64,000 bases of DNA from Escherichia coli (lineage in GTDB: Bacteria > Pseudomonadota > Gammaproteobacteria > Enterobacterales > Enterobacteriaceae): NCBI RefSeq assembly GCF_024502345.1, contig NZ_JALDNN010000001.1. One strand, 5' to 3'. Below are positions 1-26,846 of this stretch, in pieces (position 1 is the first letter of the stretch; every line of letters starts with the position of its first letter). Position numbers and translations under genes: made by a program. The notes under the pieces were generated by a model. It did not search any database and was not told the DNA's origin. It saw only the letters and a program-made list of their open reading frames with translations.

Positions 1-46
1 AATAAGTGTCCGGATCAGCGTGGAATCCGCACAAATCCTGCATCGG

Positions 47-487
47 TCAGCGTCCCACCTGTGCAGAGGCCCAGCGCACGATGTCCTGCGAGCCCATGGC
101 GCCTGCCTGGCGGGCGATCTCACGTCCGCCCTGGAACAGGGCGAGCGTCGGAATGCTGCGGATACCGAACTGCGCGGCCAGGTGGGGCTCAGCCTCGGTG
201 TTCACCTTTGCCAGCCTGATCCCGGGTTCGAGCTGGCGCGCGGCTTGTTGAAACTGCGGCGCCATCATCTTGCACGGCCCGCACCAGGGCGCCCAGAAAT
301 CGACCAGCAGCGGCAGATCGCTGCGCTCCACGTGGCGCGAGAACGTCGCCGTCGTCAACTCGATGGGCTCGCCGGTGAACAAGGGCTGCTGGCAGCGGCC
401 GCAGTTGGAACGATCCGCGAGCTTGGCGGCCGGCACGCTGTTGATGGACTGGCAATGTGGGCAGACGATGTGGAGTTCATTTTTCAT
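47..487 (-). CDS. trx: Thioredoxin (TrxC-like, N-terminal CxxC...CxxC zinc-finger extension)
   Basis: WCGPC active-site motif; N-terminal CPHC...CGRC pair; 146 aa. Confidence 0.85.
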   Translation of the reverse strand: MKNELHIVCPHCQSINSVPAAKLADRSNCGRCQQPLFTGEPIELTTATFSRHVERSDLPLLVDFWAPWCGPCKMMAPQFQQAARQLEPGIRLAKVNTEAEPHLAAQFGIRSIPTLALFQGGREIARQAGAMGSQDIVRWASAQVGR

Positions 488-1628
488 GGTTCGCTTGCTT
501 GGACTGCGGTGAGGTTGCCTCGCTTCGGATCACCGACATCGCCGACCAATTTACGCCTTTGATCCAATCGTTCCCGTCTTCGCTCACGCCGGCATCTTCC
601 ACGTGAGCCGCAATGAAGGCTTCGGCTTGAATGAGCCCCGCTCTGACAGCATCTATCTTATTAGGCATCCGCAGGATTTCAGCAGCGCAGCCTGCATCCA
701 GCCCATCCACCCGGATAAGCAGAAAAATGCGGCGCCACAAGTGCGGCATACCCTTCATCAGGTCGAATGCAAATGCGAATTCGCTCGATCTGTCACCAAT
801 TTCCTCCTGTTCGGCGATTGCTGCTGGGTCGGGAAGCCGACTATCAGCCATGACGTCGGCCAGGCTGAGTGCGTCATCAGGCTGATAAAACTCGTAGAAC
901 TCTTCCTCTACCATGGCCTCCGCCATGTCCTGCGCATCCGCTTCGACCGGCGCATCCAGCGAAACGGCCTCGCCATATTGCCGGCTGTTTGCCACTTCGC
1001 GATCAATGACGGCAAAAAGATGCTTCAAAAGATCGAGGTAAGCGGCATTTTCTTCTGGAACGGATGTCCATACCGATTCAGCCAGAGCAATCGCTTCGTC
1101 CACCACGTCGTGCAGCGTCGGATAATCGCGAGGCAAATCACCGGCGGCATGCAGATAAGCCAACTCGCGTTGCGCAACGGCCTCAACCTTCGGCAGCAGC
1201 GTCTCGATTATCCCGCGTGCTTGCTGGACGACAGAGGCAGGTTGAGTGTCGATCCGCGCCTTGAGCTCGCGCAAGCGTTCACGACGCGCCTTACGCTTGA
1301 TTTGATCCTGAGCGCTCAGCCGATCAAAGTGCTTCTTGGCCTGCCGGAACAACGCCTGCGCTAGCATGTGCGCGAGAGGCGTCAGATCGTTATGCGATGC
1401 AGTGACGCTGACGATTTTTTTGCCCGGCAAGTGCATGTGGCCACTGGCCGTTAAGCGAGATCCTTTTTTCGCGCGTTCGAGGACGATTTGAAGACGTACC
1501 GAATCTTCGGAGCGCTTTTCGATCAGCGGCTTGAGAGCGGGTTCAACCGCTTTTTCTACAGACATTCGCCAAGGTTCATGAAATTCTTTTTCGACGAGTC
1601 GATAGCTATATTGTATACGCATGCTCAA
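477..1628 (-). CDS. Hypothetical protein with N-terminal ribosome-hibernation-factor (HPF/RaiA)-like fold pattern and long acidic C-terminal extension
   Basis: 383-aa ORF; N-terminal about 100 aa follow the beta-alpha-beta-beta-beta-alpha pattern of HPF/YfiA by eye; acidic low-complexity middle region; no search run. Confidence 0.4.
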   Translation of the reverse strand: MSMRIQYSYRLVEKEFHEPWRMSVEKAVEPALKPLIEKRSEDSVRLQIVLERAKKGSRLTASGHMHLPGKKIVSVTASHNDLTPLAHMLAQALFRQAKKHFDRLSAQDQIKRKARRERLRELKARIDTQPASVVQQARGIIETLLPKVEAVAQRELAYLHAAGDLPRDYPTLHDVVDEAIALAESVWTSVPEENAAYLDLLKHLFAVIDREVANSRQYGEAVSLDAPVEADAQDMAEAMVEEEFYEFYQPDDALSLADVMADSRLPDPAAIAEQEEIGDRSSEFAFAFDLMKGMPHLWRRIFLLIRVDGLDAGCAAEILRMPNKIDAVRAGLIQAEAFIAAHVEDAGVSEDGNDWIKGVNWSAMSVIRSEATSPQSKQANHEK

Positions 1629-1720
1629 GTCCTTTAGGGTTGTCCGCCCAGGTGAGTGGACCCGGGTGATTGGATATGTTGATTTTCAAAGATGATCTTA
1701 CGGTTTGGTTTTTCACGCCC

Positions 1721-2332
1721 TTACCTCTGACGCGCTTTGCGCAAACGCCAACTAAGAAGCAAAAGAGTCATACCGAAGATCGCAGCATGGAAACCCAATA
1801 CCCAGCCCGCGGCCAGAAATGATTCGATCGGGCGGGTAAAAAACATCCATAGGATGATCGCACCGAGGAGCACGGAAAGCAGCCCGCTGAGGGCAAGCCA
1901 GATCTCGCCCTTGATTTCCCGGCGCAGACGAACGGCGGCGGATATCTCCAGCATACCGGTGAAAATTGCCCAGAATGCCACGCTTACCCACAAGAAATAG
2001 GCCAACGCCAAAGTGGCAGCCAGAGGGGCAACTACCACAACGACACCGGTGAGTATGCCGACGATGCCGCTGAACAACAGCCAGCCCCAGCGCTGCTTTT
2101 GCCGCATTTGCCGCACCGCTGCAACCAGGTTGAACGCACCATTGACCAAAGAAAATGCGCCGAACACTATCGTCATGGCGAACAAAGCCGAGTGTGGCAT
2201 CCAGAATGCGAGGACTGCAAAAATCAACGCGAATATGCCGCGCAGCGCAAACAACCACCAATTTTGGGTCAGTGAACACACGGCATCGGCAGGGTTATCC
2301 GCATTCGAATCGGCGATGGTATTTGCATTCAT
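1721..2332 (-). CDS. hdeD: HdeD-family (DUF308) inner-membrane acid-stress protein
   Basis: 203 aa, about six predicted hydrophobic helices, position between yfdX and trx as in LHR. Confidence 0.75.
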   Translation of the reverse strand: MNANTIADSNADNPADAVCSLTQNWWLFALRGIFALIFAVLAFWMPHSALFAMTIVFGAFSLVNGAFNLVAAVRQMRQKQRWGWLLFSGIVGILTGVVVVVAPLAATLALAYFLWVSVAFWAIFTGMLEISAAVRLRREIKGEIWLALSGLLSVLLGAIILWMFFTRPIESFLAAGWVLGFHAAIFGMTLLLLSWRLRKARQR

Positions 2333-2417
2333 GCGATATCTCCTTGATGGATCATGAGATCAGGAAAATCAAGCCTTCATCGCGAAGAGAGGGGCTATTC
2401 GCCCCTCTCTTGCGGTT

Positions 2418-3305
2418 TTAGAACAGCTTTGACAGTCTCGCCTTGATTTCATCGAGCCAGCCTTTTCCGCTCCCGCCTCCGGCCGTCTTTTCCTTGACTT
2501 TCTTGAGTTCAGAGTACAGGGGCTCAAAGTCCTTCTTTTTGCCATAGCCCAGCAGTTCTGCCATTTCCAACTGCTGCCGGGCTTCGTTTAACAAGTCCTG
2601 CAGGCGTTCACCGGACGCCTCGCTGCGCTGGCCATCTTCTGTCAAGGTCTCGGCGCGCTTGACGAGCAGTTTGGCGCGCAGGATGGGCAGCGGGATGACG
2701 CTGAGTGTCTCGACGAGCGTGCCGAGCGCCAACTGCAGCGCGGCCTTGGCCTCTTCGATCTTGCCCTGATCGATCAGCGGCACGACGGATTTCACGGCTG
2801 CCGGGTAAGTCGCCAGAGGGATGTTGGTGACCGCAATCACGATTTCGCTGGCCAGCAATGCCAACACGCGACGAGCGCGTTGCACCTCGCCATGTTTGAG
2901 GGCATCCAGCGCCTCGTCAGTCATCGCCTCAACGGTTTCCGTGTTGGCGAACAAGTCGTGCACGATGGTGCGCACATCAACGGGGGCCAGGGCGAGCGTG
3001 GGTTCGCGTGCAACGATCAGCTCCAGCTTTCCCGTCACTTCGGCCAGCGTTGCCAGTGCTCGCGCGGATTCTTTTTCGTCCAGGGCCGCCAGCGCTGATT
3101 TGGTCAGCGCCAAGGCCGAGACGGCCTCATCGAGGACTTGTTTACGTTTGTCTGCCGCTTGCGAGTCCGTTTCCTTCTGAACCTCAGGCTGTACCTCCGT
3201 GACGACTTCAGGCTTGGGCTCTGGTCTGGCAGGAAGGCTGCTTACCGCGGCCTGTTCGTTCGTGCCTTCGTTGATCGCGTTGGGATTCGATGTTTGCTCA
3301 TTCAT
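2418..3305 (-). CDS. YfdX-family protein (second copy)
   Basis: 295 aa; shares conserved blocks (LELIVAREP..LAPVDV, ASEIVIAVTNIPLATYPAA) with the adjacent paralog. Confidence 0.7.
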   Translation of the reverse strand: MNEQTSNPNAINEGTNEQAAVSSLPARPEPKPEVVTEVQPEVQKETDSQAADKRKQVLDEAVSALALTKSALAALDEKESARALATLAEVTGKLELIVAREPTLALAPVDVRTIVHDLFANTETVEAMTDEALDALKHGEVQRARRVLALLASEIVIAVTNIPLATYPAAVKSVVPLIDQGKIEEAKAALQLALGTLVETLSVIPLPILRAKLLVKRAETLTEDGQRSEASGERLQDLLNEARQQLEMAELLGYGKKKDFEPLYSELKKVKEKTAGGGSGKGWLDEIKARLSKLF

Positions 3306-3407
3306 GGTGATATGCCTCGTATGAGATAGTGAAAATAGGGGAATCTATTGGGGCCGACTGCGAATATCGCGAGACTGACCGATGGAGCAGTCGGCCCCTT
3401 CATCACC

Positions 3408-4337
3408 TCAAAACAGCTTTTGGATGCGCGTCTTCAACTCGTCGAACCATCCATTGCCGCTTTTGCCACCAGCCGACTTTTGCTCAATGGACTTCACCTG
3501 ATCGAAGATGGGTTTGAAGTCCTCCTTCTTGCCATAACCCAGGATTTGCGCCAGCTCGATCTCCGTGCGCACGGACGACAGCAAGGTGCTGAGCTCCTCG
3601 TTCTGCTTGGCATCGCGCTTGTCAGTCTCGGCCAGCTTTTCAGCTTTTGCCATCGCGGCTTCGGCCCGTAGCACGGGCAGAGGGAGTACAACTTGGGTGA
3701 CCACCAGCGTGTTCAGTGCTCGGGCGAGTTCCGCCTTGGCGTTGTCGATCTTGCCGCTGTCGATGAGCCGTGCGGCCGACTTGATCGCTGCCGGGTACGT
3801 TGCCATCGGCAGGTTGTCGGTTTCGATCACGATTTCGCTGGCAAGATTGGCAACAATGGGCCGTGCCTTTTGCACCTCGCCATCATCCAACAACTCCTGA
3901 GACAACTTGACCGCTTTCTTGACCGATTCCACGTCGGCGTGGATGTCATGGGTGATGACGCTTACATCGACGGGCGCCAAAGCAATTTTTGGCTCACGCG
4001 CCAATACCAGTTCCAGCTTTCCGCTGGCCAGTTCCAGCGCAGCGAGCGCCTCCTTGGTCTTCTTTGCATCAAGGAGGATCAATGCCTCATGGGTCTTGGC
4101 CAGCGCAGTGATTGCATCTTGGGCGAGTTCGGCGCGCTTCTTCGCGGCTTCCCGGGCGACCTTGTCATCTACCTGTGGCAGCGCCGCTTTGGATGCGGCA
4201 GAGGGTGCTGCAGCACCTGGGCTAGAACCTGCCGCCGATTGGGCCAGAGCCGGTCCGCTCAGTCCGACGACGACCGCCAGGGCAAGTGCGGAGAAGATGT
4301 ATTGTGGCTGTTTGATATTCATGATGTTGGACTCCAA
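3408..4337 (-). CDS. YfdX-family periplasmic protein (first copy), signal peptide
   Basis: 309 aa; N-terminal signal-peptide-like hydrophobic segment; paralog of 2418-3305. Confidence 0.7.
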   Translation of the reverse strand: MESNIMNIKQPQYIFSALALAVVVGLSGPALAQSAAGSSPGAAAPSAASKAALPQVDDKVAREAAKKRAELAQDAITALAKTHEALILLDAKKTKEALAALELASGKLELVLAREPKIALAPVDVSVITHDIHADVESVKKAVKLSQELLDDGEVQKARPIVANLASEIVIETDNLPMATYPAAIKSAARLIDSGKIDNAKAELARALNTLVVTQVVLPLPVLRAEAAMAKAEKLAETDKRDAKQNEELSTLLSSVRTEIELAQILGYGKKEDFKPIFDQVKSIEQKSAGGKSGNGWFDELKTRIQKLF

Positions 4338-4343
4338 TTGAAG

Positions 4344-4802
4344 TTAATTGACTGAAATTTCAATCTGTTTCGGTTTGGCTTGCTCGGCCTTGACAAGCCG
4401 CACTTCCAGCACGCCGTCTTTCATGGAAGCCGTCACCTTGGTCGGATCAACGTTGTCAGGCAAGACAAAGCTGCGCACAAAGCGGCCATACGCACGTTCG
4501 ATGCGGTGGAACTTCTTGCCCTGCTCCTCTTTTTCCAGTTTGCGCTCGCCGCTGATGGTGAGCACACCGTTTTCCGCGCTGACGCGCACGGCATCCTTGG
4601 GGACCTCCGGCAGATCCAGCTTGAGGAGGAATGCGTTCTCATCCTCGCTGATGTCCACCATTGGTGCCCAGTCCGCCGTGGTCATGGCTTCGTTGCCGGT
4701 ACGGGCGCCCTGTCGCTGGGGTGTCCGTCCCAACATCGTCGCCAGGCGGTTTTGCAATTCATCCAGTTCCCGGAAGGGGTCCCACGGAGTCAATGCAGAC
4801 AT
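4344..4802 (-). CDS. Small heat shock protein, Hsp20/alpha-crystallin family (sHsp-GI)
   Basis: Alpha-crystallin domain (ISEDENAFLLKLDLPEV...GVLTISGER...GVLEVRLVK); start taken at internal Met (track ORF extends to 4865). Confidence 0.8.
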   Translation of the reverse strand: MSALTPWDPFRELDELQNRLATMLGRTPQRQGARTGNEAMTTADWAPMVDISEDENAFLLKLDLPEVPKDAVRVSAENGVLTISGERKLEKEEQGKKFHRIERAYGRFVRSFVLPDNVDPTKVTASMKDGVLEVRLVKAEQAKPKQIEISVN

Positions 4803-4896
4803 ATCGGTTCTCCTTGAACAATGCCGGTGAATTGGATGACGCACCGAACAGAGCCGCCGGCTCACTCTGAATAGCGCCTATTACTTTTCGTTTCTA

Positions 4897-6231
4897 TCAA
4901 GAACAGGCCATGAGCAAGAATAGTCCATGAAGCAATAGCGCATGTCCCATCTCGTGATAGGCCACGGTTTCCCGCTCCTTCGGATTGAGCACACGGTTCT
5001 TCCTTTCCAGGCCGGCCACGATGCGCTCGATGGCGGCGGTGAAGTCTTGCAGCTCCACAGCCTGCGCCTTGCGCCGCGTCGCGTTCAGCGCTGCTTCGTT
5101 CACGAGATTGGCCAGATCAGCGCCGGAAAAGCCGGTGGTCAACGCCGCCACCTGTTCCAGATCTACACCGTGGGCCAGGGTGATCTTCTTGACATGGACC
5201 TTCAGGATATCCAGGCGACCTTTCTTGTCGGGACGGTCCACCAGCACCTGACGGTCGAAGCGACCGGCACGAAGCAAGGCCTGATCGAGGATTTCGGGGC
5301 GGTTGGTGGCGGCGAGGATGATCAGCCCGACCGAGCTGTCGAAGCCATCCATTTCGGTGAGCAACTGGTTCAGCGTCTGCTCACGCTCGTCGTGTCCGCC
5401 GGTCGGTCCTCCGACACCGCGTGCGCGGCCCAAAGCATCCAGCTCATCAATGAAGATGATCGCCGGCGCCTGCCCGCGCGCCTGCTCGAACAGGTCGCGC
5501 ACGCGCGCCGCACCCACGCCGACGAACATCTCGACGAACTCCGAGCCTGAGATGGAAAAGAACGGTACCCCGGCCTCGCCCGCCACGGCCTTGGCCAGCA
5601 GGGTCTTGCCCGTGCCCGGCGGGCCAACCAGCAACACACCTTTCGGGATGCGCGCGCCGAGGCGGCCGTAATCCTGCGGGTTCTTCAGGAAGTCGACGAT
5701 TTCGACCAGCTCGGCCTTGGCCTCATCGACACCCGCGACATCGGCAAAGGTGACGCCGGTGTTCTTCTCCATGAACACCTTGGCGCGGCTCTTGCCGATG
5801 CTCAGGAAGCCGCCCATGCCCTGCTTCTCGGCGAAGCGGCGGAACAGGAAGAACCAGACGCCGAAGAAGGCCACCGCCGGCAGAATCCAGGAGAGCACAT
5901 CACGTAGCCAGGTGCTTTCCACCACCCGCGCGTAGGGCACCTCGTACTTGGACAGCCGCTCGGCCAGGTCGGGTTCGACGCGAGTGGCCACGATGGTGGT
6001 CTTGCCCCGGCTGTCCGGCGATTTCAGGCGCCCGGTGACCGTGCGGTCCGACACCAGCACTTCGGCGACGCGCCCCTCGGCCAGCGCCTTCTCGAATTCG
6101 CTGTAGGGCACGGGCTCGACGGTCTTGGCCGCCTGCCAGTAGTTCTGCAGCGTCAGCAGCAACAGGCCGGCGACGATCCAGTAGCCAATGTTCCATTGAT
6201 CTTTCTTTTCCATGGGCAATGTTCCTCGCAA
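4897..6231 (-). CDS. FtsH-like AAA+ protein, C-terminally truncated (ends at the HEMGH zinc-binding motif; M41 peptidase domain absent)
   Basis: N-terminal TM segment plus AAA module (GPPGTGKT Walker A, DELD Walker B); ORF stops 12 codons after HEMGHA; only 31 bp to next gene; downstream bases AT-richer. Confidence 0.75.
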
Positions 6232-6240
6232 GTCGTGCCG

Positions 6241-7701
6241 CTAGAGAATGGGGGTGAACAGACGGGCCACCCCGTCGCGCAAGCGCATGGCCAGCGGGTG
6301 GGCGCGCAACGCCTTCGCCGATATCTCGCCCGACACATCACGAGCGGCATCAAAAAGGGATGACAGCCGCGTAGACAACGCGGTGTCGTACACCTCCACA
6401 TTGAACTCGAAGTTGAGGCGCAAACTGCGCGCATCCCAATTGGCCGAACCCAGGCAGCACCACGCTCCGTCTACCAGCATCAGCTTGCTGTGGTCGAACG
6501 GGCCAGGCCGTTCGAAGATGCGCACACCGTGCTCCAGCACCTGCCAGTAGTGGGCGCGCGCGGCCCATTGCACCGTGGGATGGTCGCCGTTTGCGGGCGT
6601 CAGCACGTCGATACGCACGCCGCGCAACGCGGCCGTGCTCAGCGCCGCGATCATCGGCTGATCGGGGACGAAGTAAGGTGTCCAGATGCGCACCGAATGC
6701 TTCGCCGCGCTCAAAGCGCCCATGAAGGTCCAGCGCATCCGGTCCAGGGCCTCGTCGGGACCGGCCTCGATGCCGCGCGCCCAACTGGTTCCCGGCTCAT
6801 CAGCCGTTACGGGCGGTTCGCCCCAGAAACCCTCGTTGAGCCGCTCGCCCGTGGTATCGCACCAATCATCGGTGAAGCTCCGCATCAGATGCTCCACCAC
6901 CGGCCCGCGCAGACGAAAGTGCAAATCGTGACAGGCCTGGTCCGGCGCATCGGGCCGCCAGTACGGGCTGAAGATGTTCAATCCGCCGGTGAAACCCGTC
7001 TCGCCATCGATCACCAGCAGCTTGCGGTGATTCCGCAGATGCGCGGCATGCAGGCGCGCGGGAATCAATGTCGGGTTGAACGTCGCCGCCGGAACGCCGG
7101 CGCGCTGCAAGGCGCGGTAGGCGCTGCGGGGCGTCCAGCGGGCATACACGTCGTCGATCAGCACCCGCACTTGCACGCCGCGCTCATGAGCCCGGCGCAG
7201 CGCATCGACGAACTGCGCCCCGATGCCTTGGCTGTCGAAGATGTACGAGGTCAAGGCGACGCTGTACCGCGCCGATTCGATGGCGGCGAGCATGGCCGGG
7301 TAGGCCTGCTCGCCATCGACAAGCGGCTCGATGCGGTTGCCGCCGGTCAGCGACTGGCCGGTGGCGCGTCCCACCAGGTGGGCCAGACCGGCAAGTGGCG
7401 GCGATACAGCCTCGGGTATCGTGGGCGAGAGATCCTGCCGAACAGCAGGATCTGCCCCCGGGAAGAGCCGCCGCGCCCGCCGCTGGTAACGGTTGATGCC
7501 GAACAGCCCATACAGCAGCGAACCGCCCAGCGGCAGCAAGGCGATCAGCAGTACCCACAGCGTGGCCGATCGAGGGTCACGCTTGTAGATGACCGCATGC
7601 CCCGCTGTGGGGATAGCGACCGCCAGCGACACGAGGGTGGCTGCCCATGTCAGCCCATTGGGGTCGGACACGACAGCCTCCCATCGCTCAAGATTCGCCA
7701 T
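6241..7701 (-). CDS. cls: Cardiolipin synthase-like phospholipase D family protein
   Basis: Two HxKxxxxD motifs (HRKLLVID, HSKLMLVD); N-terminal membrane helices; about 487 aa from internal Met (track ORF 6241..7884 overlaps clpK). Confidence 0.8.
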   Translation of the reverse strand: MANLERWEAVVSDPNGLTWAATLVSLAVAIPTAGHAVIYKRDPRSATLWVLLIALLPLGGSLLYGLFGINRYQRRARRLFPGADPAVRQDLSPTIPEAVSPPLAGLAHLVGRATGQSLTGGNRIEPLVDGEQAYPAMLAAIESARYSVALTSYIFDSQGIGAQFVDALRRAHERGVQVRVLIDDVYARWTPRSAYRALQRAGVPAATFNPTLIPARLHAAHLRNHRKLLVIDGETGFTGGLNIFSPYWRPDAPDQACHDLHFRLRGPVVEHLMRSFTDDWCDTTGERLNEGFWGEPPVTADEPGTSWARGIEAGPDEALDRMRWTFMGALSAAKHSVRIWTPYFVPDQPMIAALSTAALRGVRIDVLTPANGDHPTVQWAARAHYWQVLEHGVRIFERPGPFDHSKLMLVDGAWCCLGSANWDARSLRLNFEFNVEVYDTALSTRLSSLFDAARDVSGEISAKALRAHPLAMRLRDGVARLFTPIL

Positions 7702-10537
7702 CCGCTGACTTCTTCTTGCGCGCAGGCTTGCTCGCGTCGCCAGGCGGTGCCTCGGCCACGTCCGCGGCATCGGGCTTTTCAGGCTCAGCCGACTTCGCGG
7801 GTGGCTCCTGGCGCTCGAAGACCACCCGTTCGGCCTTGTCGTCCCAGCGGGCGTTGGCGTGATCACCCTTGCCGATACCGCCACCCAGCATCTCGCGCGC
7901 CAGCGCGGTTTCCAGCTCGCTGCGGATCAGCCGCTTGAGCTCACGCGCGCCGAACTCGGGCTTGTAGCCTTCCTCCGCGAAGTGGTCGATCAAGGTCTGA
8001 TCGAAGGTCAGCGTCACGCCCTGGCTGGCGGCGTTGCGGGCCACACGATCAAGCTGCAGGCCGACGATATGGCGGATTTCCTCCTTGCCCAGCGCATGGA
8101 AGACGATGATCTCGTCGATGCGGTTGATGAACTCGGGGCGGAAGTGTCCGCGCAGCACGTCCATCACCTCGGACTTGGTCTTCTCGTATTCCTCGCCGGC
8201 GGCGCCACCGGCCTTCAGCCGACGCTGGATGATGTCCGAGCCCAGGTTCGAGGTGGCGATGATGATGGTATTGGTGAAATCCACCACCCGGCCCTTGCCG
8301 TCGGTGAGCCGCCCGTCGTCGAACACCTGCAGCAGGATGTTGTAGACGTCGGGGTGCGCTTTTTCGATCTCATCGAGCAGCAACACGCTGTAGGGCTTGC
8401 GACGCACCTTCTCGGTGAGCTGGCCGCCCTCGTCATAGCCCACATAACCCGGAGGCGCGCCCACCAGGCGTGCCACGGCATGGCGTTCCCCGTACTCGGA
8501 CATGTCGATGCGCAGCAGCGCACCTTCATCGCCATAGATGGACTCGGCCAGCGCCTTGGCGAGCTCGGTCTTGCCCACGCCGGTCGGCCCAAGGAACAGG
8601 AAAGTCGCCACCGGCTTGTCGCCTTCGCGCAGGCCCGCGCGCGACAACCGCACGGCATCGGCCACCGCGCGCACCGCTTCGTCCTGGCCCACCAGGCGCT
8701 CATGCAGCCGCTGCTCCAGATGCAGCAGCTTCTCGCGTTCTTCCACCGTCAGCTCGTTGACCGGAATGCCGGTCAGGCGCGAGACGATCTGCGCGACATG
8801 CTCGGCCTTGACTTCGGCGCTGCCCGAGGCGCGCTCGCGTTCCCATTCCTCGACGAGCTGCTTGAGTTCAGTCTCCTTGGCCTCGATGCGCTTGCCCAGC
8901 TCGGCGGCCTTGTCGTACTGCTTGCGCGAGGCCATGTAGTCCTGCTCACGCCGCAACTGGTGCAGTTCGGACTCCAGCTCCTGCACCGCCACCGGGCGAG
9001 CCGTGGCCGACAGCTTCACGCGTGCGGCCGCCTGGTCAAGCAGGTCGATGGCCTTGTCAGGCAAAAAGCGCGCGGTGATGTAGCGGTCCGACAACTCGGC
9101 GGCGGCGATGATCGCATCCTCGGTGATGCTGACCTTGTGGTGCGCCTCGAAGGTGTCGCGCAGGCCGCGCAGGATCATCATGGTCTGCGCTACCGTCGGC
9201 TCGGGCACCATCACCGGCTGGAAACGACGCTCCAGCGCGGCGTCCTTCTCGATGTACTTCTGATACTCGTTGAGCGTGGTGGCGCCGATCAGGTTCAGTT
9301 CGCCGCGCGCCATCATCGGCTTGAACACGTTGGCCACGTCCAGCCCGCCTTCGCCGCCACCCTGGCCTGCACCGACGATGGTGTGCACTTCATCGATGAA
9401 GAGAATCATCTCGCCCTGGTGCTCGGTCACTTCCTTGAGCACCTTCTGCACGCGCTCCTCGAACTCGCCGCGATACTTGGCGCCTGCCACCATGGCGTTG
9501 ATGTTGAGCTCGACCAGACGCTTGTCGCGCAGCGTCTCGGGCACTTCACCGGCGACCATGCGCTGCGCCAGCCCTTCGACAATGGCGGTCTTGCCGACGC
9601 CGGGCTCACCGATCAACACCGGGTTGTTTTTCTTGCGCCGGGCCAGCACCTCGATGGTGGTCTCGATCTCCTGCGCACGGCCGATGACTGGATCGAGTTT
9701 GCCCTCGCGCGCCATCTTGGTGAGGTCGCGCGAGTATTTATCCAGCTCGGGCGTGTTGGTCGGCGTCTCGGCGCGGCCATCCTCGGCCCCTTTGCCGACC
9801 ACCTTGCTTACCTGCTGGCGCAGCGCTTGCGGCGTGAGGCCGTAACGGCGCAGCAGGTTGGCCGCCAAACCTTCGCCTTCCTCAGCGAGCCCGATCAGGA
9901 AATGCTCCGGCCCGACATAAGAGTGGCCGAGTTCGTTGGAGGCCACGAAAGCGCGGCTGAGCGCGTCCTTGACCCGGGGCGACACGCCGACTTCGCCCTC
10001 GAACGGCTTCTCGCCGCGCTTGGCTTCGGATTCGATCTGTCGCTTGAGGTCATCGACCTTGATCTTGAACTGTCCCAGGATGGTCTTCACCACGTCGCTG
10101 TCGGATAGCGCCAGCAGCAGGTGTTCGGTATCGACTTCGGCGCGCCCGAACTCTGCAGCGTGTCGGGCGGCCTCCTGCAATAGGGCCTCGGACTGTTCGC
10201 TGATACGGCTGGCGAGCCCACTGCCGCGACGGCGCGCAGTGCCCGTACCGGCCGGGGCGGGTTCGCCGAACGAGGCATCGACCACCTCGTCGGTATCGGC
10301 CGCCATGGACGGCGAATCGTCACCGATGCGGAAGAAGTCGCTGCCGAGGAAGTCTTCGAACAAGCCGCTGCGCGAGCCAAACAAGGCTTCCAGCGGCGAG
10401 ACGGTGCGCTTTTGCTGGCGCGCCAGTTGGCGATAGTGATCGTCACACAACAGCATGGTGCTGTGGCGACCATTGAGATTGGCTTCCACCCGCACCGTGG
10501 CGGGCTGGCCGCAGACCTGGCATTGTTTTCTGGCCAT
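7688..10537 (-). CDS. clpK: ClpK/ClpG-type Clp AAA+ disaggregase with N-terminal zinc-ribbon-like extension
   Basis: Two AAA modules (GEPGVGKT and GPTGVGKT Walker A), Clp-N region, CQVCGQ...CDDHY N-terminus; AAGGAG RBS 7 nt upstream of chosen ATG; about 949 aa. Confidence 0.9.
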
Positions 10538-10634
10538 GCTCATGCTCCTTGAGAGGACTGATTTGACGAGGCGCCGAAGGTCACGGCGCCTCGCCATTCA
10601 CTTGGTTTTTCTGTAGAGAACAAGCCGATCGGCG

Positions 10635-11204
10635 TCAGCCGTTGATCGGGATCGAGCGGCCCTGCTTGGGCGCACTGGCCTCGCGCTTTTCCATTGTGAT
10701 CGTGAGTACGCCGTTCTTGAAAGCGGCCTTGATCGTGTCCTGGTTGGCATCGGTCGGCAGGTTCAGAGCGCGCTGAAAGCTGCCGTAGGAGCGCTCCACC
10801 CGGTGGAAACCGCCGTCTTTGCTTTCCTGCTCCTGACGCTTTTCACCGCGAACCAGCAGCACGTCGTTGTCGAGCGTGATATGGATGTCTTTTTCCTCGA
10901 CGCCGGGAACCTCCAAAGAAATCTTGTACTGCTTGTCGGTCTCCTGGATGTCCAGCGCCGGCTTCAGCAGGCCCGGCCAGTCCGACGGCCAGCGTGGCAT
11001 GGCCAGCGCCGGAAAGCCGAAGCCTCGAAACGTGTCGTCGAAGAGGCGGTCGATCTCGCGGTGCAATTGCAGGATGGGACTGACGGGCCCACCCGCTACC
11101 GGCAGGTCATTGCGCTGCACCGGCAGCGAGGCAGTGCTCTGTTGTTCTTCCTGCTCCTTCTTGAACCAGTTCCAGGGAGCCAACTTCTTGAAATCAATGT
11201 CCAT
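10635..11204 (-). CDS. Small heat shock protein Hsp20 (sHsp20)
   Basis: Alpha-crystallin domain (DIQETDKQYKISLEVPGV...GVLTITMEK); GGAGG RBS before internal ATG (MDIDFKK). Confidence 0.85.
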   Translation of the reverse strand: MDIDFKKLAPWNWFKKEQEEQQSTASLPVQRNDLPVAGGPVSPILQLHREIDRLFDDTFRGFGFPALAMPRWPSDWPGLLKPALDIQETDKQYKISLEVPGVEEKDIHITLDNDVLLVRGEKRQEQESKDGGFHRVERSYGSFQRALNLPTDANQDTIKAAFKNGVLTITMEKREASAPKQGRSIPING

Positions 11205-11239
11205 GTCACACCTCCAGAACAAAAATTGAAGACTCTCGC

Positions 11240-11521
11240 TCACTCCGTTTGCCTGCGGCTATGGATAGCGCGCCCAGGCAACACGGGATGTTTCGCTGAC
11301 TTCGGCTGCTCATCTGTACGTATCACCTCCTTCTTTCTGCCTGCTTGGATCTGATCATTGATCCATCGATCGATTTCACTTTGACGAAACCGCCACGTCC
11401 CGCCGACCTTGAAGGCCGGAATCTCCCCGTGCGCGGCGAGCCGGTAGAGCGTCCGCTTGCCGACCTTTAAGTAGGTAGCCAACTCGTCGAGTGTGAAGAT
11501 CGCCTGCTGGCGCGCTGTCAT
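11240..11521 (-). CDS. Small HTH DNA-binding protein (AlpA/excisionase/MerR-like), first gene of the heat-resistance locus
   Basis: Motif LDELATYLKVGKRTLYRLAAHGEIPAFKVGGTWRF typical of HTH_17/excisionase-type regulators; 4-nt overlap with sHsp20 ORF. Confidence 0.6.
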   Translation of the reverse strand: MTARQQAIFTLDELATYLKVGKRTLYRLAAHGEIPAFKVGGTWRFRQSEIDRWINDQIQAGRKKEVIRTDEQPKSAKHPVLPGRAIHSRRQTE

Positions 11522-12028
11522 ACCACCCCCACAAGTTCCGTCGTCACGCGGCCTCGCCTGAGGAAGTTCTTGCAAGACTTTGCAAGATATTGCGCCTAAT
11601 ATGCCAAAAGTCAAGAGTCAACATCCAGCGATCTGCTGGCCGATTGATGTGACTCAAATCTTCAAGGACGGTATGCCAGGGCGGGCCGGTCCGGCGCAGG
11701 GGACGGTGGGTTGATCGGGACCTTGCGGGCGCCGCCCACGGCCGCAGATCAAACACCGATCCTCACGTTGTAACCGAGCGCCCGCAGCCCCTTGCTCGTG
11801 CGCATGTTCCTTGGCGGAAACTCGTCTGGGCGCGCCCAGCCGACGATTTCCCCGAGGCTGCTCAGGCCAATGTGCGGAATTGCCCAGTCGTCGCTGCGGA
11901 TCGCGTTCCAGAGTCGGGCCGAAAAACCTCCGTTGCCCCAGACAACGTAGTTCAACAGTATCCGTCCTGCCAACACACCTTCCCGACACCGCCGCCGAAG
12001 GCCATGGCCCATCAAGCGGATTTTCCAT

Positions 12029-12399
12029 GCCCCCTCAGCGCCGTACCTACAGCAAATCTTTCAAGGCCCAGGTCATTCAGGAGTGTTCTGAACCCGGTGC
12101 CTCCATCGCAAACATCGCCTTGGGCTACAGCCTCAATGCCAACCTCGTCCACAAATGGATTCGGCTGCATACCCAGAAAACCACGGCTATCCAGCCAGCG
12201 TTCATCCCGTTGCCTTCTCAAATGCTCGGCGCGGGATCGCATGCTCAAGTGCGCTGCTGCGATCATGAGTTTGATCCAGTCGGCCCGTAATAATGGGCAC
12301 GATCCGTATGCCTATCTCAAGGATGTGCTGACACGGTTGCCGACGCAGCGGGCGAGTGAGATTGCAGAGCTGCTGCCGCATAGGTGGCATCCGGCATAG
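12029..12399 (+). mobile_element. IS66-family remnant: OrfA-like HTH fragment fused to a TnpC C-terminal fragment (internally deleted)
   Basis: RRTYSKSFKAQVIQE...NANLVHKWIR transposase-HTH pattern; separate frame ends ...GHDPYAYLKDVLTRLPTQRASEIAELLPHRWHPA like the IS66 TnpC C-terminus; central transposase region absent. Confidence 0.6.
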
Positions 12400-12639
12400 T
12401 CGCGCAAGACGGTCTGCCCGCACGCTTACGTTCAACAGCTCAAGCACCGTCCGCCCTTCGCGGGATCGTTGCCGCCAGAGCCACACGCCGAACTTTTCCA
12501 CCTTGTCGTCGCCGGCCTGCGGTCAGTCAGGCAAGCCCAGGTGCTTGTTTTCCTGCTTGATCGCGTGGTCTCGGATCGCGTGCACCCGGGAAACGGCATC
12601 CACGAACTGCCACCATCTCTTAGCTTGGCGGGGTCAAGC

Positions 12640-14497
<1,858 letters not shown>

Positions 14498-14505
<8 letters not shown>

Positions 14506-16000
14506 TCCATCTTCCTATCAATCGAATGAACGCAGTGGTCAGTGGTGCCACCCTGCTTTTTTCCAATCCACAACGCTTTTCCAGCTCCCAGCGCCTAGAC
14601 GTTATGCCTGTCTGTACATCCTTCAGCATCGCTGCAGTCAGGCGACGGATCTGATACTCGCCGACGGACTCGGCATAGCGATCCAGGAAGGTGCAGCAAA
14701 GAGGCAATTGATCGAGACGGTGCTCGACTGATGCCCGATGGGGTAGCTGCTGCAGGAACCAGTTGCGACTCCTGCGCGGAAGGCCCAGGTCTTCTTCGCT
14801 ACCTCTACCAATCCGGATCAGCAGGCGCACCAACCTTATGTCACGCGCTCGCCAGTCGATGTGGCTGTTGTTGCCCTGTCGGCGCTGCCTGACCTGGTTC
14901 GCAACCATCAGCCAGTGTCGGTCATGACGATAGAGCCAGGCGTAACATGCCCCTGCTCCGTCTTGCCTGGCTGCCTTGGCTCCACCGTGATTAGCCAGTG
15001 CTTGCAGCCAAATGGCTCGGTACTGCTGCTTTTGCTCAAACTCAGCAGGGAGCAGCTGCACTGACCGCTCGGAGGCAAGGTCGACCTGGCGAGTCTTCGC
15101 CTCGCTGATCAGCTCGCCAGCATGCTGGCCAGGGCGCAGGCTGGTCCAGACGATCAGATGCTGCAGCGCACTGAATCCCTTGCGATGCTTCCTGAACATC
15201 GCCAACAGCCAAGGTGGAGGCTCTCCGGATGTCAGCAGACCGTTCGCAGCAAGCCAATCCCTTTGATGGGATGCCAGGATCTTCTCCCAGATGACTTCAG
15301 CCCTGACCTGCCGGCCTCGCCTGGCGCCGCACTCTGTAGCCAGGTACCGGTACAGGTTGGTCCAGCGTCCGTAGCCAGGCGATTGCACCTCTTCGAGCGC
15401 CAGCAGCTGCATAGCAGCCTTGGCGAGCCTGATAGCCTCTTCGCCCACGGGACTCACGCGAAGATCACGGGGCAGAAACAGTGGAGAGGCTGTATGAAAC
15501 TCGTGCCGCTGCGCTCGACGGAACGGGATAGGTGAGTTCAGGAGCTGACAGCCATGCTCGGGACAGGCATCTATCCCTTGAATCTGCCAGCTGCGCCGCC
15601 AGTAGGGTTCACCGTAGCGCGCAGCCATATCTTCAAAGCAGATCGGGCAGTAACGCAGCCAATCGGGCCACTTGACCAAGGCCGTCGAGGCCCCAGACAG
15701 ACCAATCGTCGGCCGGTCGGGAGCAAGCATGGCCTGAAAAAGATCGGTACGGCGCTCCGGCGGAATGAAAGGGGCATAGAGCGGGAACAGCGTGTGATTC
15801 AGGATCATGCCTTCCGCATCCAAGCCCGTGTTGTTCGCCAACGCAGTCAGGTGTGTGGGCAGATCGGTGATCGCGGCAACCTTGCTGTCACCGAAAAGCA
15901 TGTGCAGCAAGGTCTTGTGGCTGCCTATCCCCAGATGTACCCGGCACCGGGCAATACCGCTGTAAAGCAGTTCGTCCGGGTAGAGCCTGGGGAAGTACAT
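14498..16000 (-). CDS. tnsD: TnsD/TniQ-family target-site selection protein
   Basis: 500 aa; N-terminal TniQ-like region (YPDELLYSGIARC) and CPICFED...CPEHGC zinc-finger motif. Confidence 0.75.
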
Positions 16001-16001
16001 G

Positions 16002-17612
16002 TCAGCTCGCTCTCAGCAGAGGCCGTAGATCGAGGATCAAGCCAGCCTGCTTGAATCTGTCATAGGCCTCGCTTTCAGGCCCATCGGCATAACGTCGGCG
16101 CAGATCCTCCTCGGATAGGCACCCCCACTCCGTCCGCTTAACTCTGGAAATGCCGGGCCTCTTGGGAGCGTCCTGCGCGAGGTAGGCCGTGGCCTTGTGA
16201 ATCAGGGCCGCCAGCGGGATGTCCGGATTCTCCGCCAACAATTCATCGGCCATGGGAATGGCGATGTCCCTCGGGATTTCCATACCTTCGAGCAGGGCGG
16301 CCAACCGCTTTGCCTTGTCATCAGCCGGAGGGGCCGGTGGTTTAGGTTGGGGGACGCTATCCAGAGAGCGAGTCAGGGTCAGCAACCGTCCCTCGATCTC
16401 TGGCATCAGCAGGTCGTCATATTTGGCGATCAGCTCGGGCCTACCGCTCCGCAAGGCCGCCAGCATCGGATGGACCGGTTTGAACTCGTCCTCGAAAACC
16501 CTGCGCAGCAACAGCGGCTTAATGCACTCGACACCTGTCACTATCGCCCGGATCTGCGCCAGCGCGAACAGCTTGATGACGATGTCCATGACCCCTTGGG
16601 TGAGGTCGTACATCGTAGCCTCCAGTTCATCATCCAGCGGCGCCGCATTTCGCAGCCACTGATACTTCCAAAGCCGCTTCAACAGACGCTTCCAATGCTC
16701 GTCCCGAGGCAACCTATCCCAGCGGATGCTGCCCAACCCGGAGACCCGCCGAGCAGCCCGGAACGTGCGCTGGAAGAACTTGCTGGCCCGGTGGGTGCCG
16801 ACCTGAATGATCGGAACACCGATGGTGTTCACCAGCGACACGAAGAAATTGTGCATTTTTTCGGCACCACCGGAGCGTGCCTCGTTGAGGTTCTGAACCT
16901 CGTCGATGATCAGCACTCCGAGCGTGTGCAGATTGGCCAGCTGGCACATGGATGCCAGCAGACGTTTGGTACCCAGCTTCTTGCGTCCGTGGCTACGGCT
17001 GTAGTGGGTACCCAGGATCTTGTCTACTTCGTTGAAGAAGCTCAGGCACAGCTCATCCAAGTCACCGTCAATTGGGCAGTCGATCTTCAGGTAGACCAGT
17101 TGGGTGATGTCGTAATCAGGGTGATGGAGAGCTTGGGGGTACATGCCCAGAATCCGCTCCAGCGTGCGCGTCTTGCCGCAACCGGAGCAGCCGAACAGCG
17201 ACAGGCTGTTGGCCGTAGAGGAGACACTCTGGTACACCGCCGCATCCAGATCCTCCTCCTCGACACGGCGATAGCCATTCTGCAGGTGCGCATACCAGGC
17301 ACCGCTGGCCGGATTCCGACCGATGTACCCTTGACGGATCATCAGGCTGATCTTGCTCTCCAGCTCCAAGTGATGGCTCAGCGGCTGGAAGAAGCCGTGC
17401 AACAGGCGGGCAATCGCATGTGCCCTGAGCCGACCATCCAGAAGCGCCTCCTGCGGCTCGAAACCGGGAAGCTGCTGCAATAGATCGACCACCTCCTGCA
17501 GATCAGGAATCGGAGGCAATGCGCTGATGAGCGGATTGTCCTGATACTCGGGAAGCTGCTGCTCCTGGTAACGCGCCAGGGGAATGACTCCGCGCTGGAA
17601 TTCTTCAGTCAT
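16002..17612 (-). CDS. tnsC: TnsC AAA+ transposition regulator
   Basis: 536 aa; Walker A GCSGCGKT; Walker B-like IIDEVQN; placed between tnsB and tnsD. Confidence 0.8.
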   Translation of the reverse strand: MTEEFQRGVIPLARYQEQQLPEYQDNPLISALPPIPDLQEVVDLLQQLPGFEPQEALLDGRLRAHAIARLLHGFFQPLSHHLELESKISLMIRQGYIGRNPASGAWYAHLQNGYRRVEEEDLDAAVYQSVSSTANSLSLFGCSGCGKTRTLERILGMYPQALHHPDYDITQLVYLKIDCPIDGDLDELCLSFFNEVDKILGTHYSRSHGRKKLGTKRLLASMCQLANLHTLGVLIIDEVQNLNEARSGGAEKMHNFFVSLVNTIGVPIIQVGTHRASKFFQRTFRAARRVSGLGSIRWDRLPRDEHWKRLLKRLWKYQWLRNAAPLDDELEATMYDLTQGVMDIVIKLFALAQIRAIVTGVECIKPLLLRRVFEDEFKPVHPMLAALRSGRPELIAKYDDLLMPEIEGRLLTLTRSLDSVPQPKPPAPPADDKAKRLAALLEGMEIPRDIAIPMADELLAENPDIPLAALIHKATAYLAQDAPKRPGISRVKRTEWGCLSEEDLRRRYADGPESEAYDRFKQAGLILDLRPLLRAS

Positions 17613-19692
17613 CCTCTTCCTCCTTGAATATCAGGTCACTGAGATCTGGGAAGGCATAATCTTCCTGCTTCTCGCCCCGCAGTGGGATCACCTCGGCTGG
17701 CTTTTCCTGCTGTGCTTTATCCGGTTTGAATGCTGTTTTCTGGCGTTCCTGGCGCTTTTCCTGCTGCTTGTTCTCGCGGATCTGGGTTCCCAGATCCTTC
17801 GTGGTCATACCCGTTTTGAGCGGACTGGCATCCTCTGCCTGGGCAACGATGGACTCGATCTGCTTCAGAAGATTGCCTCTCTCTACCAAAGCTTCCGCCG
17901 CCGCGTTGGTATCGCTACGCCGTTCCTCTCTGGACAGCAGCCAGACATCCCAGAAGGTCATCCCCCTGAAGCGTCGACTGCGGTCGGCAAGATCGCAAAC
18001 CCAGTAGTCCTTGAGACTATTGGACGGCCGCAGGTAGATGTGGTCGGCGCTACGCGGATCGTATGCGACCGTTACCCCTGTCGGCCGGCGCCCCTGGCCT
18101 CGGTGAAACCAACCCTCCCTGATTGCTTCCTGGCAGGTGTAGAAGCAGCCGAACAGTCTGATTCCCAGCTCCGAAACCGTGGCCGACTCATGGGGCAAGA
18201 GATTTATCCGCACCAGCTCCTCGGGCGCAGTACGTAACCGGCCGGTCAAGTTGGCCAAGCCCCAGTTCCACAGCATGACCGGGATGGCTGGCAGATCGCC
18301 CGGCATACCAGAGGTTCTGTCGTATTTGCTCAAGGTATGAAAGTTGTTGTGGTAGAGGATGCCGGCAATGATGATCTGGGTGAACTCGGGCAAGGTCAGA
18401 CTGGCATCAAGTCTGTAGTCGTGGCCACCCCGCTTCCGGCTGGTGGTGTCCTCGACCACACCGCTGGCATAGGGCTTGAAACGCTCCTGCACCGTCCGGA
18501 AATAACGCTCGACGATCCCCTTGGCATCTCCTCGCCTGGCCGGTGCATTCTCGATGCGAACGCCGAAGGCTTGGGAAAATGCTTCCACCTTGGTGCCATT
18601 CAGTTCGCCCTTATCGGCCAGCACCACATCCGGCAAGCCTTTGACCGGCCAGTCGCTGGCATCGATCTCCACGCTATACTGGCGGCAATACTCAACCTTG
18701 TCGGCGACCGTGTTGGCCAATGCCACCATGGCACTGACCCAGGAAGGTCCCTCGAATCCGACGTACATACCAACGACCATGCGGCTGAACACGTCGATCA
18801 CCATGTAAACGACAGGCCTGCCGACGATAAGGCTGCGATCATGTTCTGAAACCAGATAGATATCGGCGATGGTGGCATCGATCTGGTAGCGGTATCCTGG
18901 CCCCAGTGCCTCGGTCGTCGATGTACTGCTGAGCGGTCGGAAGTCCTTGGCAAAATCCACTGCGGACACCCTGCATGGCAAGGTGTCGGTGAAGTGATAT
19001 TCGCGCCCATAGAAGTAACGGAACTGCCCCAATGTAGGCAGTTCGGAGGTCGGCAGCTCCGTCAGAACAGCACGGAGCAGATTCAGCCCGGCGGCGTAGG
19101 CATCAGGAATGGACGGATGTTTTTCCTTGAGCAAACGTTCCTCGATGACCCGGCGAAAAATGCGCTCGATGTCCGGCGTGACATTGCTCCCTTTCCCCTC
19201 CATCACCACTCTGGGCCTGCCCAGCTTGGCCTGGTTCGGCTTTCTGCGCTTGCCACGGGCGCCCGAGTTGACATAGTCCGGCAAGAGGGCATTCCTGCAC
19301 ATGCCTCGCTGCCAGTAGCGCCTCAGTAACCTATACACCGTCTGATTGGTGACACCATGGCGCTCCATGATGCCTCTGACAATGAGCCCTCTGGGGCGCC
19401 GCACGAAAAGCTGGGGGTTGTGCACAAAATCCGCCAGCATTCCCCAAGCTTCATCACGCTTCTGCTGATCAAGGGAACCTTCCTCAACCTCCCGTAGGAC
19501 TGTTTCCTCGAAGGGATCGGCAATGCTCTCCAGCTCCCGCTCCATGATCAGACGCTCCAGCTCTACAATCGATATCGGTTCGGGCAACGCCGTGTCCGAA
19601 TCGATATCGATCCAGATTGCCTGCTCGGTACCGGACCAAAGCAGGCGCTTTCGCAGTTCCCCCATCCGGAACACCTGATTAACGGGCAACAC
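17605..19692 (-). CDS. tnsB: TnsB DDE transposase (retroviral-integrase-like core)
   Basis: 695 aa; N-terminal HTH, central rve-like core (YQIDATIADIY...VIDVFSRM...), similar in size to Tn7 TnsB. Confidence 0.85.
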   Translation of the reverse strand: MLPVNQVFRMGELRKRLLWSGTEQAIWIDIDSDTALPEPISIVELERLIMERELESIADPFEETVLREVEEGSLDQQKRDEAWGMLADFVHNPQLFVRRPRGLIVRGIMERHGVTNQTVYRLLRRYWQRGMCRNALLPDYVNSGARGKRRKPNQAKLGRPRVVMEGKGSNVTPDIERIFRRVIEERLLKEKHPSIPDAYAAGLNLLRAVLTELPTSELPTLGQFRYFYGREYHFTDTLPCRVSAVDFAKDFRPLSSTSTTEALGPGYRYQIDATIADIYLVSEHDRSLIVGRPVVYMVIDVFSRMVVGMYVGFEGPSWVSAMVALANTVADKVEYCRQYSVEIDASDWPVKGLPDVVLADKGELNGTKVEAFSQAFGVRIENAPARRGDAKGIVERYFRTVQERFKPYASGVVEDTTSRKRGGHDYRLDASLTLPEFTQIIIAGILYHNNFHTLSKYDRTSGMPGDLPAIPVMLWNWGLANLTGRLRTAPEELVRINLLPHESATVSELGIRLFGCFYTCQEAIREGWFHRGQGRRPTGVTVAYDPRSADHIYLRPSNSLKDYWVCDLADRSRRFRGMTFWDVWLLSREERRSDTNAAAEALVERGNLLKQIESIVAQAEDASPLKTGMTTKDLGTQIRENKQQEKRQERQKTAFKPDKAQQEKPAEVIPLRGEKQEDYAFPDLSDLIFKEEEDD

Positions 19693-20506: not shown

Positions 20507-20565
20507 GAGAAAGCCTGCCCCCGCTGTGTCGATGACCTCAACATAGCGGATGCAGGCTCAGAATG

Positions 20566-20626
20566 AAACTTTATTTATACGGATGATACTTTATTTATAC
20601 GGATGAACCTTTATTTGCATCCCACA
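20566..20626. repeat. Tn7-like right-end terminal repeats (putative TnsB binding sites) ending in terminal 5'-TGTGGG on the complementary strand
   Basis: Three tandem about 20-bp repeats: ACTTTATTTATACGGATGA (x2) then CCTTTATTTGCATCCCACA; about 120 bp upstream of tnsA start. Confidence 0.75.
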
Positions 20627-20703
20627 CATTTTACTTAAGGCATAAGCGGTAGAGTTGAGTGATAACCCTTCCATAATTTCATTTTCTAACACACTAATTT
20701 AAT

Positions 20704-21069: not shown

Positions 21070-21216
21070 TTGCGCTAAGGCAGATCCTTTCGCTTCTGGT
21101 GGAGGTGGGTATATATACCTAATGCTTAGTCAACGACAGTATGACCTCATGGAATAACCATTTTTGAAAGTGCTCACCAGCTGCGCTTCGGTCGCTCGAC
21201 ATGACTCAATACAAAC

Positions 21217-21420: not shown

Positions 21421-21562
21421 GCCGTCAATGCTATTAATTCTGGTAAAGTCTAACTACTCCACCAGTTTATTGATGCTGTAACAGTTCTCCAGATCCAGTC
21501 CAAGTTTCATTTCGACTTCTTTTTCAAATCGTTCATTTCAAAAAACTGTGAATTAACACAGC

Positions 21563-25159: not shown

Positions 25160-25278
25160 TACATACTACCGTTACCTTCAGCATACCACCCGCAACGATG
25201 TTATAAACAGAGCTAGGCCACACCTCCTTCGGGAAGTGTGGCCTTTCGTATTTTTATCGAGAGAATAAGGAGTTATCC

Positions 25279-26835: not shown

Positions 26836-26846
26836 GGTCAGCCGCT

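Follow-up and report, generated by a model that had tools for sequence, protein, structure and literature searches.

What is the gene cluster, rich in guanine and cytosine (GC), that opens a 64,000-nucleotide stretch of the Escherichia coli contig NZ_JALDNN010000001.1 (assembly GCF_024502345.1; the whole stretch is hereafter the window), how did it come to lie within reach of the aspV tRNA gene, and what may it do for the cell that carries it? A first-pass annotation made from the sequence had interpreted positions 1-11620 as part of the heat-resistance locus (LHR), also named the transmissible stress-tolerance locus (tLST). Our analysis upholds this identification and adds a vehicle: we hold it very probable, for the explanation taken as a whole, that this is a tLST carried by a transposon of the Tn7 family that inserted at a CATTT sequence in an older aspV-associated island, that the copy is a mosaic with lesions in ftsH and kefB, and that its function is the one described in the literature for such islands.

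The cluster stands apart in composition, with a GC content of 0.612 in 1-11620 against 0.517 in the backbone at 30156-64000 (61% versus 52%), which bears out the foreign, GC-rich origin previously proposed for it. It contains 11 open reading frames (ORFs) without internal stops, all on the minus strand between 47 and 11521, and these include all the genes listed in the first-pass annotation and follow the order known from E. coli AW1.7 except for the presence of cls and a longer ftsH. The 20.5-kb block to which they belong shares 99.7-99.8% identity with E. coli G3/10 and LR536430, and ~96% both with the strains that serve Li et al. 2025 as references for tLST2, tLST3a and tLST3b and with the plasmid copy of Salmonella Senftenberg (S. 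Senftenberg) ATCC 43845 (CP016838); its clpK module reaches 97.8-99% identity with the tLST3a and tLST2 references. The comparison with LHR references that the first-pass annotation had proposed thereby yielded more than generic chaperone homology: the genes shared with AW1.7 are syntenic at ~86% DNA identity, with protein identities from 69.8% (orf11) to 98.0% (sHsp20-GI), and the ClpK model is passed. The block occurs in 157 of 5426 complete E. coli genomes, and near-identical copies were found in four complete E. coli genomes, one of them a probiotic-product strain (G3/10). From its sequence, we therefore identify 1-11620 as a segment of a tLST/LHR island of foreign, GC-rich origin. The alternative, that ordinary chaperone and protease genes have clustered here natively or by chance, is hardly credible: the Hsp20, Clp, FtsH and Trx families are universal, but the curated model passed is specific for ClpK, the order of 11 genes follows the references at 86-99% DNA identity, the GC content stands out from the backbone and the block occurs in so few genomes. 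Identity and synteny rule this reading out.

In the direction of transcription the island begins with orf1 (11240-11521), the "dna" gene, whose product is an excisionase/MerR-type helix-turn-helix (HTH) protein, since it passes an excisionase-family HTH domain model (56.8 bits, cut-off 28.8); it is 100% identical to its S. Senftenberg counterpart and 75% identical to that of AW1.7. The same protein scores 79.4 bits on the HTH model of MAD1 from the MADS defence system, for which the cut-off is 80. Together with sHsp20 (orf2, 10635-11204; Hsp20-type matches, 100% identity to S. Senftenberg, 87.3% to AW1.7) and clpK (7688-10537) it forms the core triad, complete and in a single (minus) orientation. 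ClpK, a ClpG-type stand-alone disaggregase of 949 aa with two Walker A motifs, is covered over its full length (1-949) by the NCBIfam ClpK exception model (2153 bits, cut-off 1900), while its 1305 bits on the ClpG model fall below the cut-off there; it is 94.5% identical to AW1.7 ClpK. A KPAR tandem repeat in its C-terminal tail (~7700-7760) varies among copies in its number of units: the window has one, C 236-04A two and G3/10 three, and the ClpK of AW1.7 is of the short form. Then come cls (6241-7671), encoding a cardiolipin synthase of the phospholipase D family (TIGR04265, 289.2 bits against a cut-off of 290; 97.9% identity to S. Senftenberg cls), and a truncated ftsH-GI (4897-6213; FtsH profile positions 8-432 of 598). 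The envelope module follows in the AW1.7 order, with sHsp20-GI (4344-4802), a small heat-shock protein with Hsp20-type NCBIfam matches, yfdX1 (3408-4322; Pfam YfdX, E 3.8e-35), yfdX2 (2418-3305; Pfam YfdX, E 9e-38) and the membrane protein gene hdeD-GI (1721-2332; two DUF308 repeats, E 1e-13 and 5e-9), which are 98.0, 92.1, 87.8 and 77.8% identical to AW1.7, respectively. From the redox/periplasmic module the window holds only orf11 (477-1622; 69.8% identity to AW1.7 orf11 over 381 aa), the thioredoxin gene trx-GI (47-487; NCBIfam TrxC, 154 bits, cut-off 125; 89.7% identity to AW1.7, 99.3% to S. Senftenberg) and the first 12 nt of kefB-GI. The orf11 product has no family match in Pfam or NCBIfam, consistent with its literature label "protein of unknown function".

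The genes thus lie where the first-pass annotation had placed them, but the span 1-11620 is not that of the element: the GC-rich block runs on to 20626, position 1 is only the edge of the window, and the Tn7-family vehicle, comprising tnsABCDE and the right end at 20626, had been missed. We identified the Tns proteins by matching solved structures of Tn7 proteins; a scan of NCBIfam gave no match for TnsA, TnsC, TnsD and TnsE and only a weak IS481 match for TnsB. All five genes are on the minus strand and intact (12883-20506): tnsE (12883-14463; C-terminal domain against Tn7 TnsE 5d16, E 1.7e-10), tnsD (14498-16000; 8glu_X, E 1.3e-46), tnsC (16002-17612; 7mbw, E 1.2e-122), tnsB (17605-19692; 7pik, E 2.1e-187, almost end to end) and tnsA (19679-20506; 1f1z, E 1.9e-60). 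Beyond tnsA, the right end of the transposon (20507-20626) carries two exact copies of the 18-bp repeat CTTTATTTATACGGATGA, at 20569-20586 and 20589-20606 (0.02 copies expected by chance), and a related terminal copy, ...GCATCCCACA, that ends at 20626. In G3/10, C 236-04A and S. Senftenberg the element carries these terminal 18-22 bp again, inverted, at its opposite end. Immediately outside lies CATTT (20627-20631), the right-hand copy of a 5-bp target-site duplication and the only copy visible in the window. In C 236-04A the right junction is identical base for base to that of the window and CATTT is found on both flanks of the element; RX24 has the same aspV island with no transposon and a single CATTT, that is, the empty site. 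Duplications of 5 bp are seen at three independent sites (CATTT in C 236-04A, CCAGT in G3/10 and GCTGC in S. Senftenberg). The tLST island is accordingly cargo of a Tn7-family transposon that arrived by Tn7-type transposition, RX24 and C 236-04A showing the site before and after the event, and its left end in the source genome is expected to read TGTGGGATGCAAATAAAG, preceded by CATTT. Because all five transposition genes are intact, this copy may still be mobile. The related genomes vary in this respect: C 236-04A, at the same site, has a 1.56-kb deletion over the tnsD/tnsC boundary and a broken tnsA (L005 36453-41024), the ABWA45 match falls into two pieces that span the same 92% of the query, so that this genome may share the tnsD/tnsC deletion, and LR536430, like the window, has all five tns genes intact.

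This mode of arrival bears on the placement of the island "next to aspV" in the first-pass annotation. The tRNA-Asp(GTC) gene aspV is indeed present (30156-30232, minus strand; ARAGORN), followed by dnaQ, and the neighbouring genes support its identity: dnaQ and rnhA adjoin it, as they do in C 236-04A and RX24, and rrnH and aspU lie beyond. There is also an aspV-associated island, but the transposon is nested within this older island and its end is 9.5 kb away from aspV, which lies 18.5 kb beyond 11620. The existence of that island and of the tRNA gene would favour a classical tRNA-linked scenario, in which a site-specific integrase integrated the tLST directly at aspV. We consider this very improbable. 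The GC-rich block stops 9.5 kb short of aspV at a Tn7-type end; in RX24 the aspV island lacks the block and has one CATTT precisely at the junction position, and in C 236-04A CATTT flanks the element on either side. Moreover, copies of the element were found at glmS, inside gajB and an integrase gene, and on plasmids. Direct integration at aspV is contradicted by the RX24 empty site and the C 236-04A duplication, and aspV had no part in the arrival of the tLST.

Insertion at attTn7, downstream of glmS, was not found for the window copy, which sits in the aspV island. However, attTn7 is one of two Tn7 target pathways, and a site away from glmS does not exclude membership in the Tn7 family. The insertion in the window would have used the TnsE pathway or another pathway independent of TnsD. 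Sister copies occupy diverse places. In TC24 (L010 3288-3333), a copy that carries a tLST is located 25 bp past the stop codon of glmS, its tnsA end facing that gene, as in classical attTn7 insertions. In our small survey of copies, one site is common to S43, 2273-PO3, 2021CK-01361 and EC2001, and the copy of strain 81 abuts a truncated integrase gene. In G3/10 (L001 4617-5552 and 34614-35120), the copy splits the Gabija gene gajB beside gajA, with the duplication CCAGT; GajB profile positions 4-154 lie on one side of the transposon and 158-468 on the other, and the insertion has probably inactivated this Gabija defence system. By sequence comparison, this transposon family displays both attTn7 and non-att insertions, and the window copy belongs to the latter. 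The few non-att insertions examined are located in gajB (G3/10), beside a type III restriction-modification locus in the aspV island, in the integrase gene of strain 81 and on an IncHI2 plasmid. A broader reading, which we advance only tentatively and consider rather unlikely to hold in full, is that a Tn7-family transposon is the main vehicle of the tLST lineages containing cls and ftsH (tLST2, tLST3 and tLST2c), that it still uses both Tn7 pathways and that its non-att insertions may favour mobile or defence DNA, as the small number examined would suggest; the single insertions are shown by sequence, and both the target bias and the novelty of these observations are tentative. Our incomplete literature search retrieved no description of tLST ends, duplications or attTn7 use. 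A 2021 review noted Tn7 elements flanking tLST and judged the data too scarce for systematic analysis.

Like prototypic Tn7, the element encodes homologues of the five transposition proteins in the same order, has TGT...ACA termini with repeats of a TnsB-type site and duplicates 5 bp of its target; in TC24, a sister copy is found 25 bp downstream of glmS. It differs in its cargo, a stress-tolerance island instead of the Tn7 integron with resistance cassettes, and in the location of the window copy at a non-att site within a genomic island, away from the attTn7 of glmS. The Tn7-like transposon of Pseudomonas aeruginosa CF39S (Almblad et al. 2021, PMC8012707) is similar in bearing tdcA and LHR-syntenic genes, with a GGDEF thermosensor gene, on a Tn7-like element, a likeness drawn from the text of that paper, and differs in its host. 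Among the tLST references, S. Senftenberg tLST2 (CP016838) and tLST3a/3b (E. coli S43 and 873.10) have the same Tn7-family backbone, terminal repeats and cls, and are 98-99% identical to the window from ftsH through tnsA; unlike the window, they have a full-length ftsH and their sHsp20-GI-to-trx half is only 87-88% identical, and in S. Senftenberg tLST2 the place of orf11 is taken by orfC/orfD (an mscS-like and a hypothetical gene). In E. coli AW1.7 the LHR, of type tLST1 (Mercer et al. 2015, PMC4563881), has the order orf1, sHsp20, clpK, ..., sHsp20-GI, yfdX1, yfdX2, hdeD, orf11, trx, a GC content of ~61-62% and proteins 70-98% identical to those of the window, but it lacks cls, retains a shorter ftsH remnant, is only ~86% identical in DNA and has no tnsABCDE beside it. 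In the complete AW1.7 assembly the LHR is on a 66.9-kb plasmid, pAW1.7_2, among remnants of IS26 and Tn3; the strains studied by Mercer et al. 2015 (PMC4563881) were said to have no plasmids >14 kb.

To which tLST variant does the copy belong? We assign it, on its sequence features, to variant tLST2c of Li, Jarocki, Wyrsch, Cummins and Djordjevic (2025, NPJ Antimicrob Resist, PMC12603250) because the ftsH deletion, the absence of orfC/orfD and the insertion of an insertion sequence (IS) of the IS21 family at trx/kefB all match the published description. The ftsH gene listed in the first-pass annotation is present, not intact but truncated in a pseudogene-like manner: relative to S. Senftenberg ftsH, 528 bp are missing directly after the zinc motif HEMGH, with 31 nt in their place (deletion junction with filler at ~4906-4936), so that the transmembrane region, the AAA+ domain and HEMGH are retained and the rest of the M41 peptidase domain is gone. 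The annotations of G3/10 and C 236-04A mark it as a pseudogene. The hdeD-trx interval holds a single orf11, orfC/orfD being absent. The tLST1, tLST2, tLST3a and tLST3b classes were considered as well and set aside for three reasons: the deletion in ftsH, the region around orf11 and the IS. Also shared with tLST2c are cls and, in the near-identical complete copies, a GGDEF gene; the difference is that the IS (ISPa85 in the nomenclature of Li et al.) is placed 12 nt inside kefB here and between trx and kefB in the published variant. The kefB-orfE duplication reported for tLST2a-c concerns a region outside the window. Neither "Tn7" nor "tnsA" occurs in the text of that paper (0 occurrences each), which does not discuss the Tn7 vehicle.

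The IS lies at the very beginning of the window. Bases 1-31 (minus strand) match the inverted-repeat end TGCGGATTCCACG... of the istAB element located beside trx-GI in G3/10 and therefore the rest of the island lies outside the window. Positions 32-43 (minus strand) are the first 12 nt of kefB-GI (ATGCAGGATTTG), split off by the IS, as alignment with the uninterrupted trx-kefB junctions of S. Senftenberg and AW1.7 indicates; read in the direction of transcription, the junction is trx-TGA-CCG-ATGCAGGATTTG followed by the IS repeat TGCGGATTCCACG, which places the IS 12 nt inside kefB-GI. A complete istAB element is present in G3/10, where its target duplication is GGATTTG, and in C 236-04A, and beyond it both genomes have kefB, GGDEF, psiE, htpX and degP. 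The IS and the operon share the same orientation. In G3/10 (L001 11440-11540), the IS end supplies an in-frame ATG that gives KefB-GI a hybrid N-terminus (MAWNPQDLLG versus MQDLLG); the kefB ORF stays open there from a start 89 nt after istB, and PGAP annotates this longer ORF. The IS terminus in the window misses 55 bp of the G3/10 sequence (two of the short end repeats) and the window begins within the IS, as might be expected of a draft assembly in which the contig stops here or a repeat has been collapsed.

The two halves of the island belong to different lineages. From 4937 to 20626 the window is 99% identical to S. Senftenberg tLST2, and from 4937 to 11620 it is 97.8% identical to the tLST3a reference strain S43. 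By contrast, the stretch 30-4905, from sHsp20-GI to trx, has matches of at least 99% identity in just four complete E. coli genomes, and all the remaining E. coli tLST copies share 86-88% identity with it; its nearest relative elsewhere is a plasmid of Pseudomonas fragi NMC25 (98.1%), whose copy has a tLST1-type layout, without cls or ftsH. That plasmid also bears a Klebsiella-type mrkABCD fimbrial operon. The copy is therefore a mosaic of a clpK and tns half from the tLST2/3 lineage and an sHsp20-GI-to-trx half from a lineage otherwise seen on the P. fragi plasmid. Because the identity change point lies close to the ftsH deletion, it suggests recombination between two tLST lineages.

What such a copy may do for its host can be proposed from the published biology of related islands. 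After arrival by a TnsABC-type cut-and-paste transposition into the pre-existing aspV island, and not attTn7, with a 5-bp CATTT duplication, the cargo in 1-11620 would provide a protein-homeostasis module (the orf1 HTH protein, sHsp20, ClpK, cardiolipin synthase, the truncated FtsH and sHsp20-GI), an envelope module (YfdX1, YfdX2 and HdeD-GI) and the start of a redox module (orf11 and Trx-GI). By analogy with those islands, the small heat-shock proteins sHsp20 and sHsp20-GI would act as holdases that bind unfolding proteins, and ClpK as a stand-alone disaggregase that pulls aggregates apart at the expense of ATP. YfdX1/YfdX2 and HdeD-GI would protect the envelope, and Trx, together with KefB, PsiE, HtpX and DegP (the latter four encoded outside the window), would take charge of redox and periplasmic damage control. 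Jointly, these modules may confer survival at 60 °C and chlorine tolerance.

Several points weigh against this explanation. In cloning experiments, high heat resistance was obtained from the full-length LHR only (Mercer et al. 2015, PMC4563881), and the part of the operon downstream of the IS may be less strongly expressed. The half with kefB, psiE, htpX and degP and the left transposon end lie outside the window; that the source genome has them is deduced from four near-identical genomes. The TnsE pathway is likewise deduced solely from the location away from glmS. As to the phenotype, the tLST copy might be functionally attenuated or silent, the IS uncoupling kefB, psiE, htpX and degP and the ftsH protease being lost, in which case the strain would not be extremely heat resistant; this possibility concerns the phenotype only and is compatible with the classification of the sequence. 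The IS 12 nt inside kefB-GI, the ftsH ORF without most of its peptidase domain, and published work indicating that the full-length LHR is needed and that non-chaperone genes are required for the full phenotype all speak for it. However, according to the literature tLST1, which also has a truncated ftsH, confers a heat resistance similar to that of tLST2, the IS lies in the operon orientation, and its in-frame ATG keeps kefB open (MAWNPQDLLG...), making read-through plausible; the occurrence of tLST2c in 19 genomes of sequence type ST399 and 89 of ST635 (Li et al. 2025) also argues against a dead element. We consider attenuation a real possibility, although not the likelier outcome, next to a functional tLST. 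Full heat resistance cannot be assumed because the IS21-family element interrupts the operon at kefB. Our literature search for heat-resistance data on the Symbioflor strain G3/10 found nothing relevant.

E. coli positive for tLST can survive 60 °C and chlorine, so its presence is of concern in meat processing, in water treatment and for hospital hygiene; for an IS-interrupted operon, the phenotype is not to be assumed from gene presence. The copy itself adds little new biology, as the island (known since 2010-2015), the tLST2c variant (described in 2025, PMC12603250) and the association with a Tn7-like element (a Tn7-like transposon with LHR-syntenic genes was reported in 2021 in P. aeruginosa, PMC8012707) are all already in the literature. 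The transposon ends, the duplications and the use of attTn7 extend the known picture rather than change it.

Between the cargo and tnsE, the stretch 11749-12880 contains a small hypothetical gene and fragments of transposase and ATP-binding genes, annotated as such in G3/10 and C 236-04A. The P. fragi copy has the same hypothetical gene and transposase remnant upstream of orf1, and AW1.7 a comparable hypothetical gene and transposase fragment in this position. Scanning 1-12900 with the sigma-70 consensus yielded not a single promoter-like site, where chance would give 2.8, and terminator-like sites showed no enrichment there (16 found versus 11.9 expected); because neither scan gave a signal, we propose no promoter map.

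On the other side of the transposon, 20632-30155 is the remnant of the older aspV-associated island that served as its target; four deletions apart, it is collinear with C 236-04A and RX24. It starts with gutted type III restriction-modification and helicase genes, followed by DUF932, antirestriction, radC, yeeU/cbtA and DUF4942 genes, and has CP4-type genes. The deletions, within 21900-24970, correspond to four blocks (1376, 2375, 4479 and 2266 bp) that are present in C 236-04A, RX24, ABWA45 and LR536430; each junction shows 2-5 bp of microhomology, and the res and mod genes of the type III system as well as DUF4391, helicase-related, GTPase and WYL genes of the island are gutted. This four-deletion arrangement was found in 0 of 5426 complete E. 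coli genomes, and it may reflect either true decay of a defence locus or an error of assembly. Further on, 43913-64000 is ordinary E. coli backbone, from gmhB to lpxB, collinear with C 236-04A.

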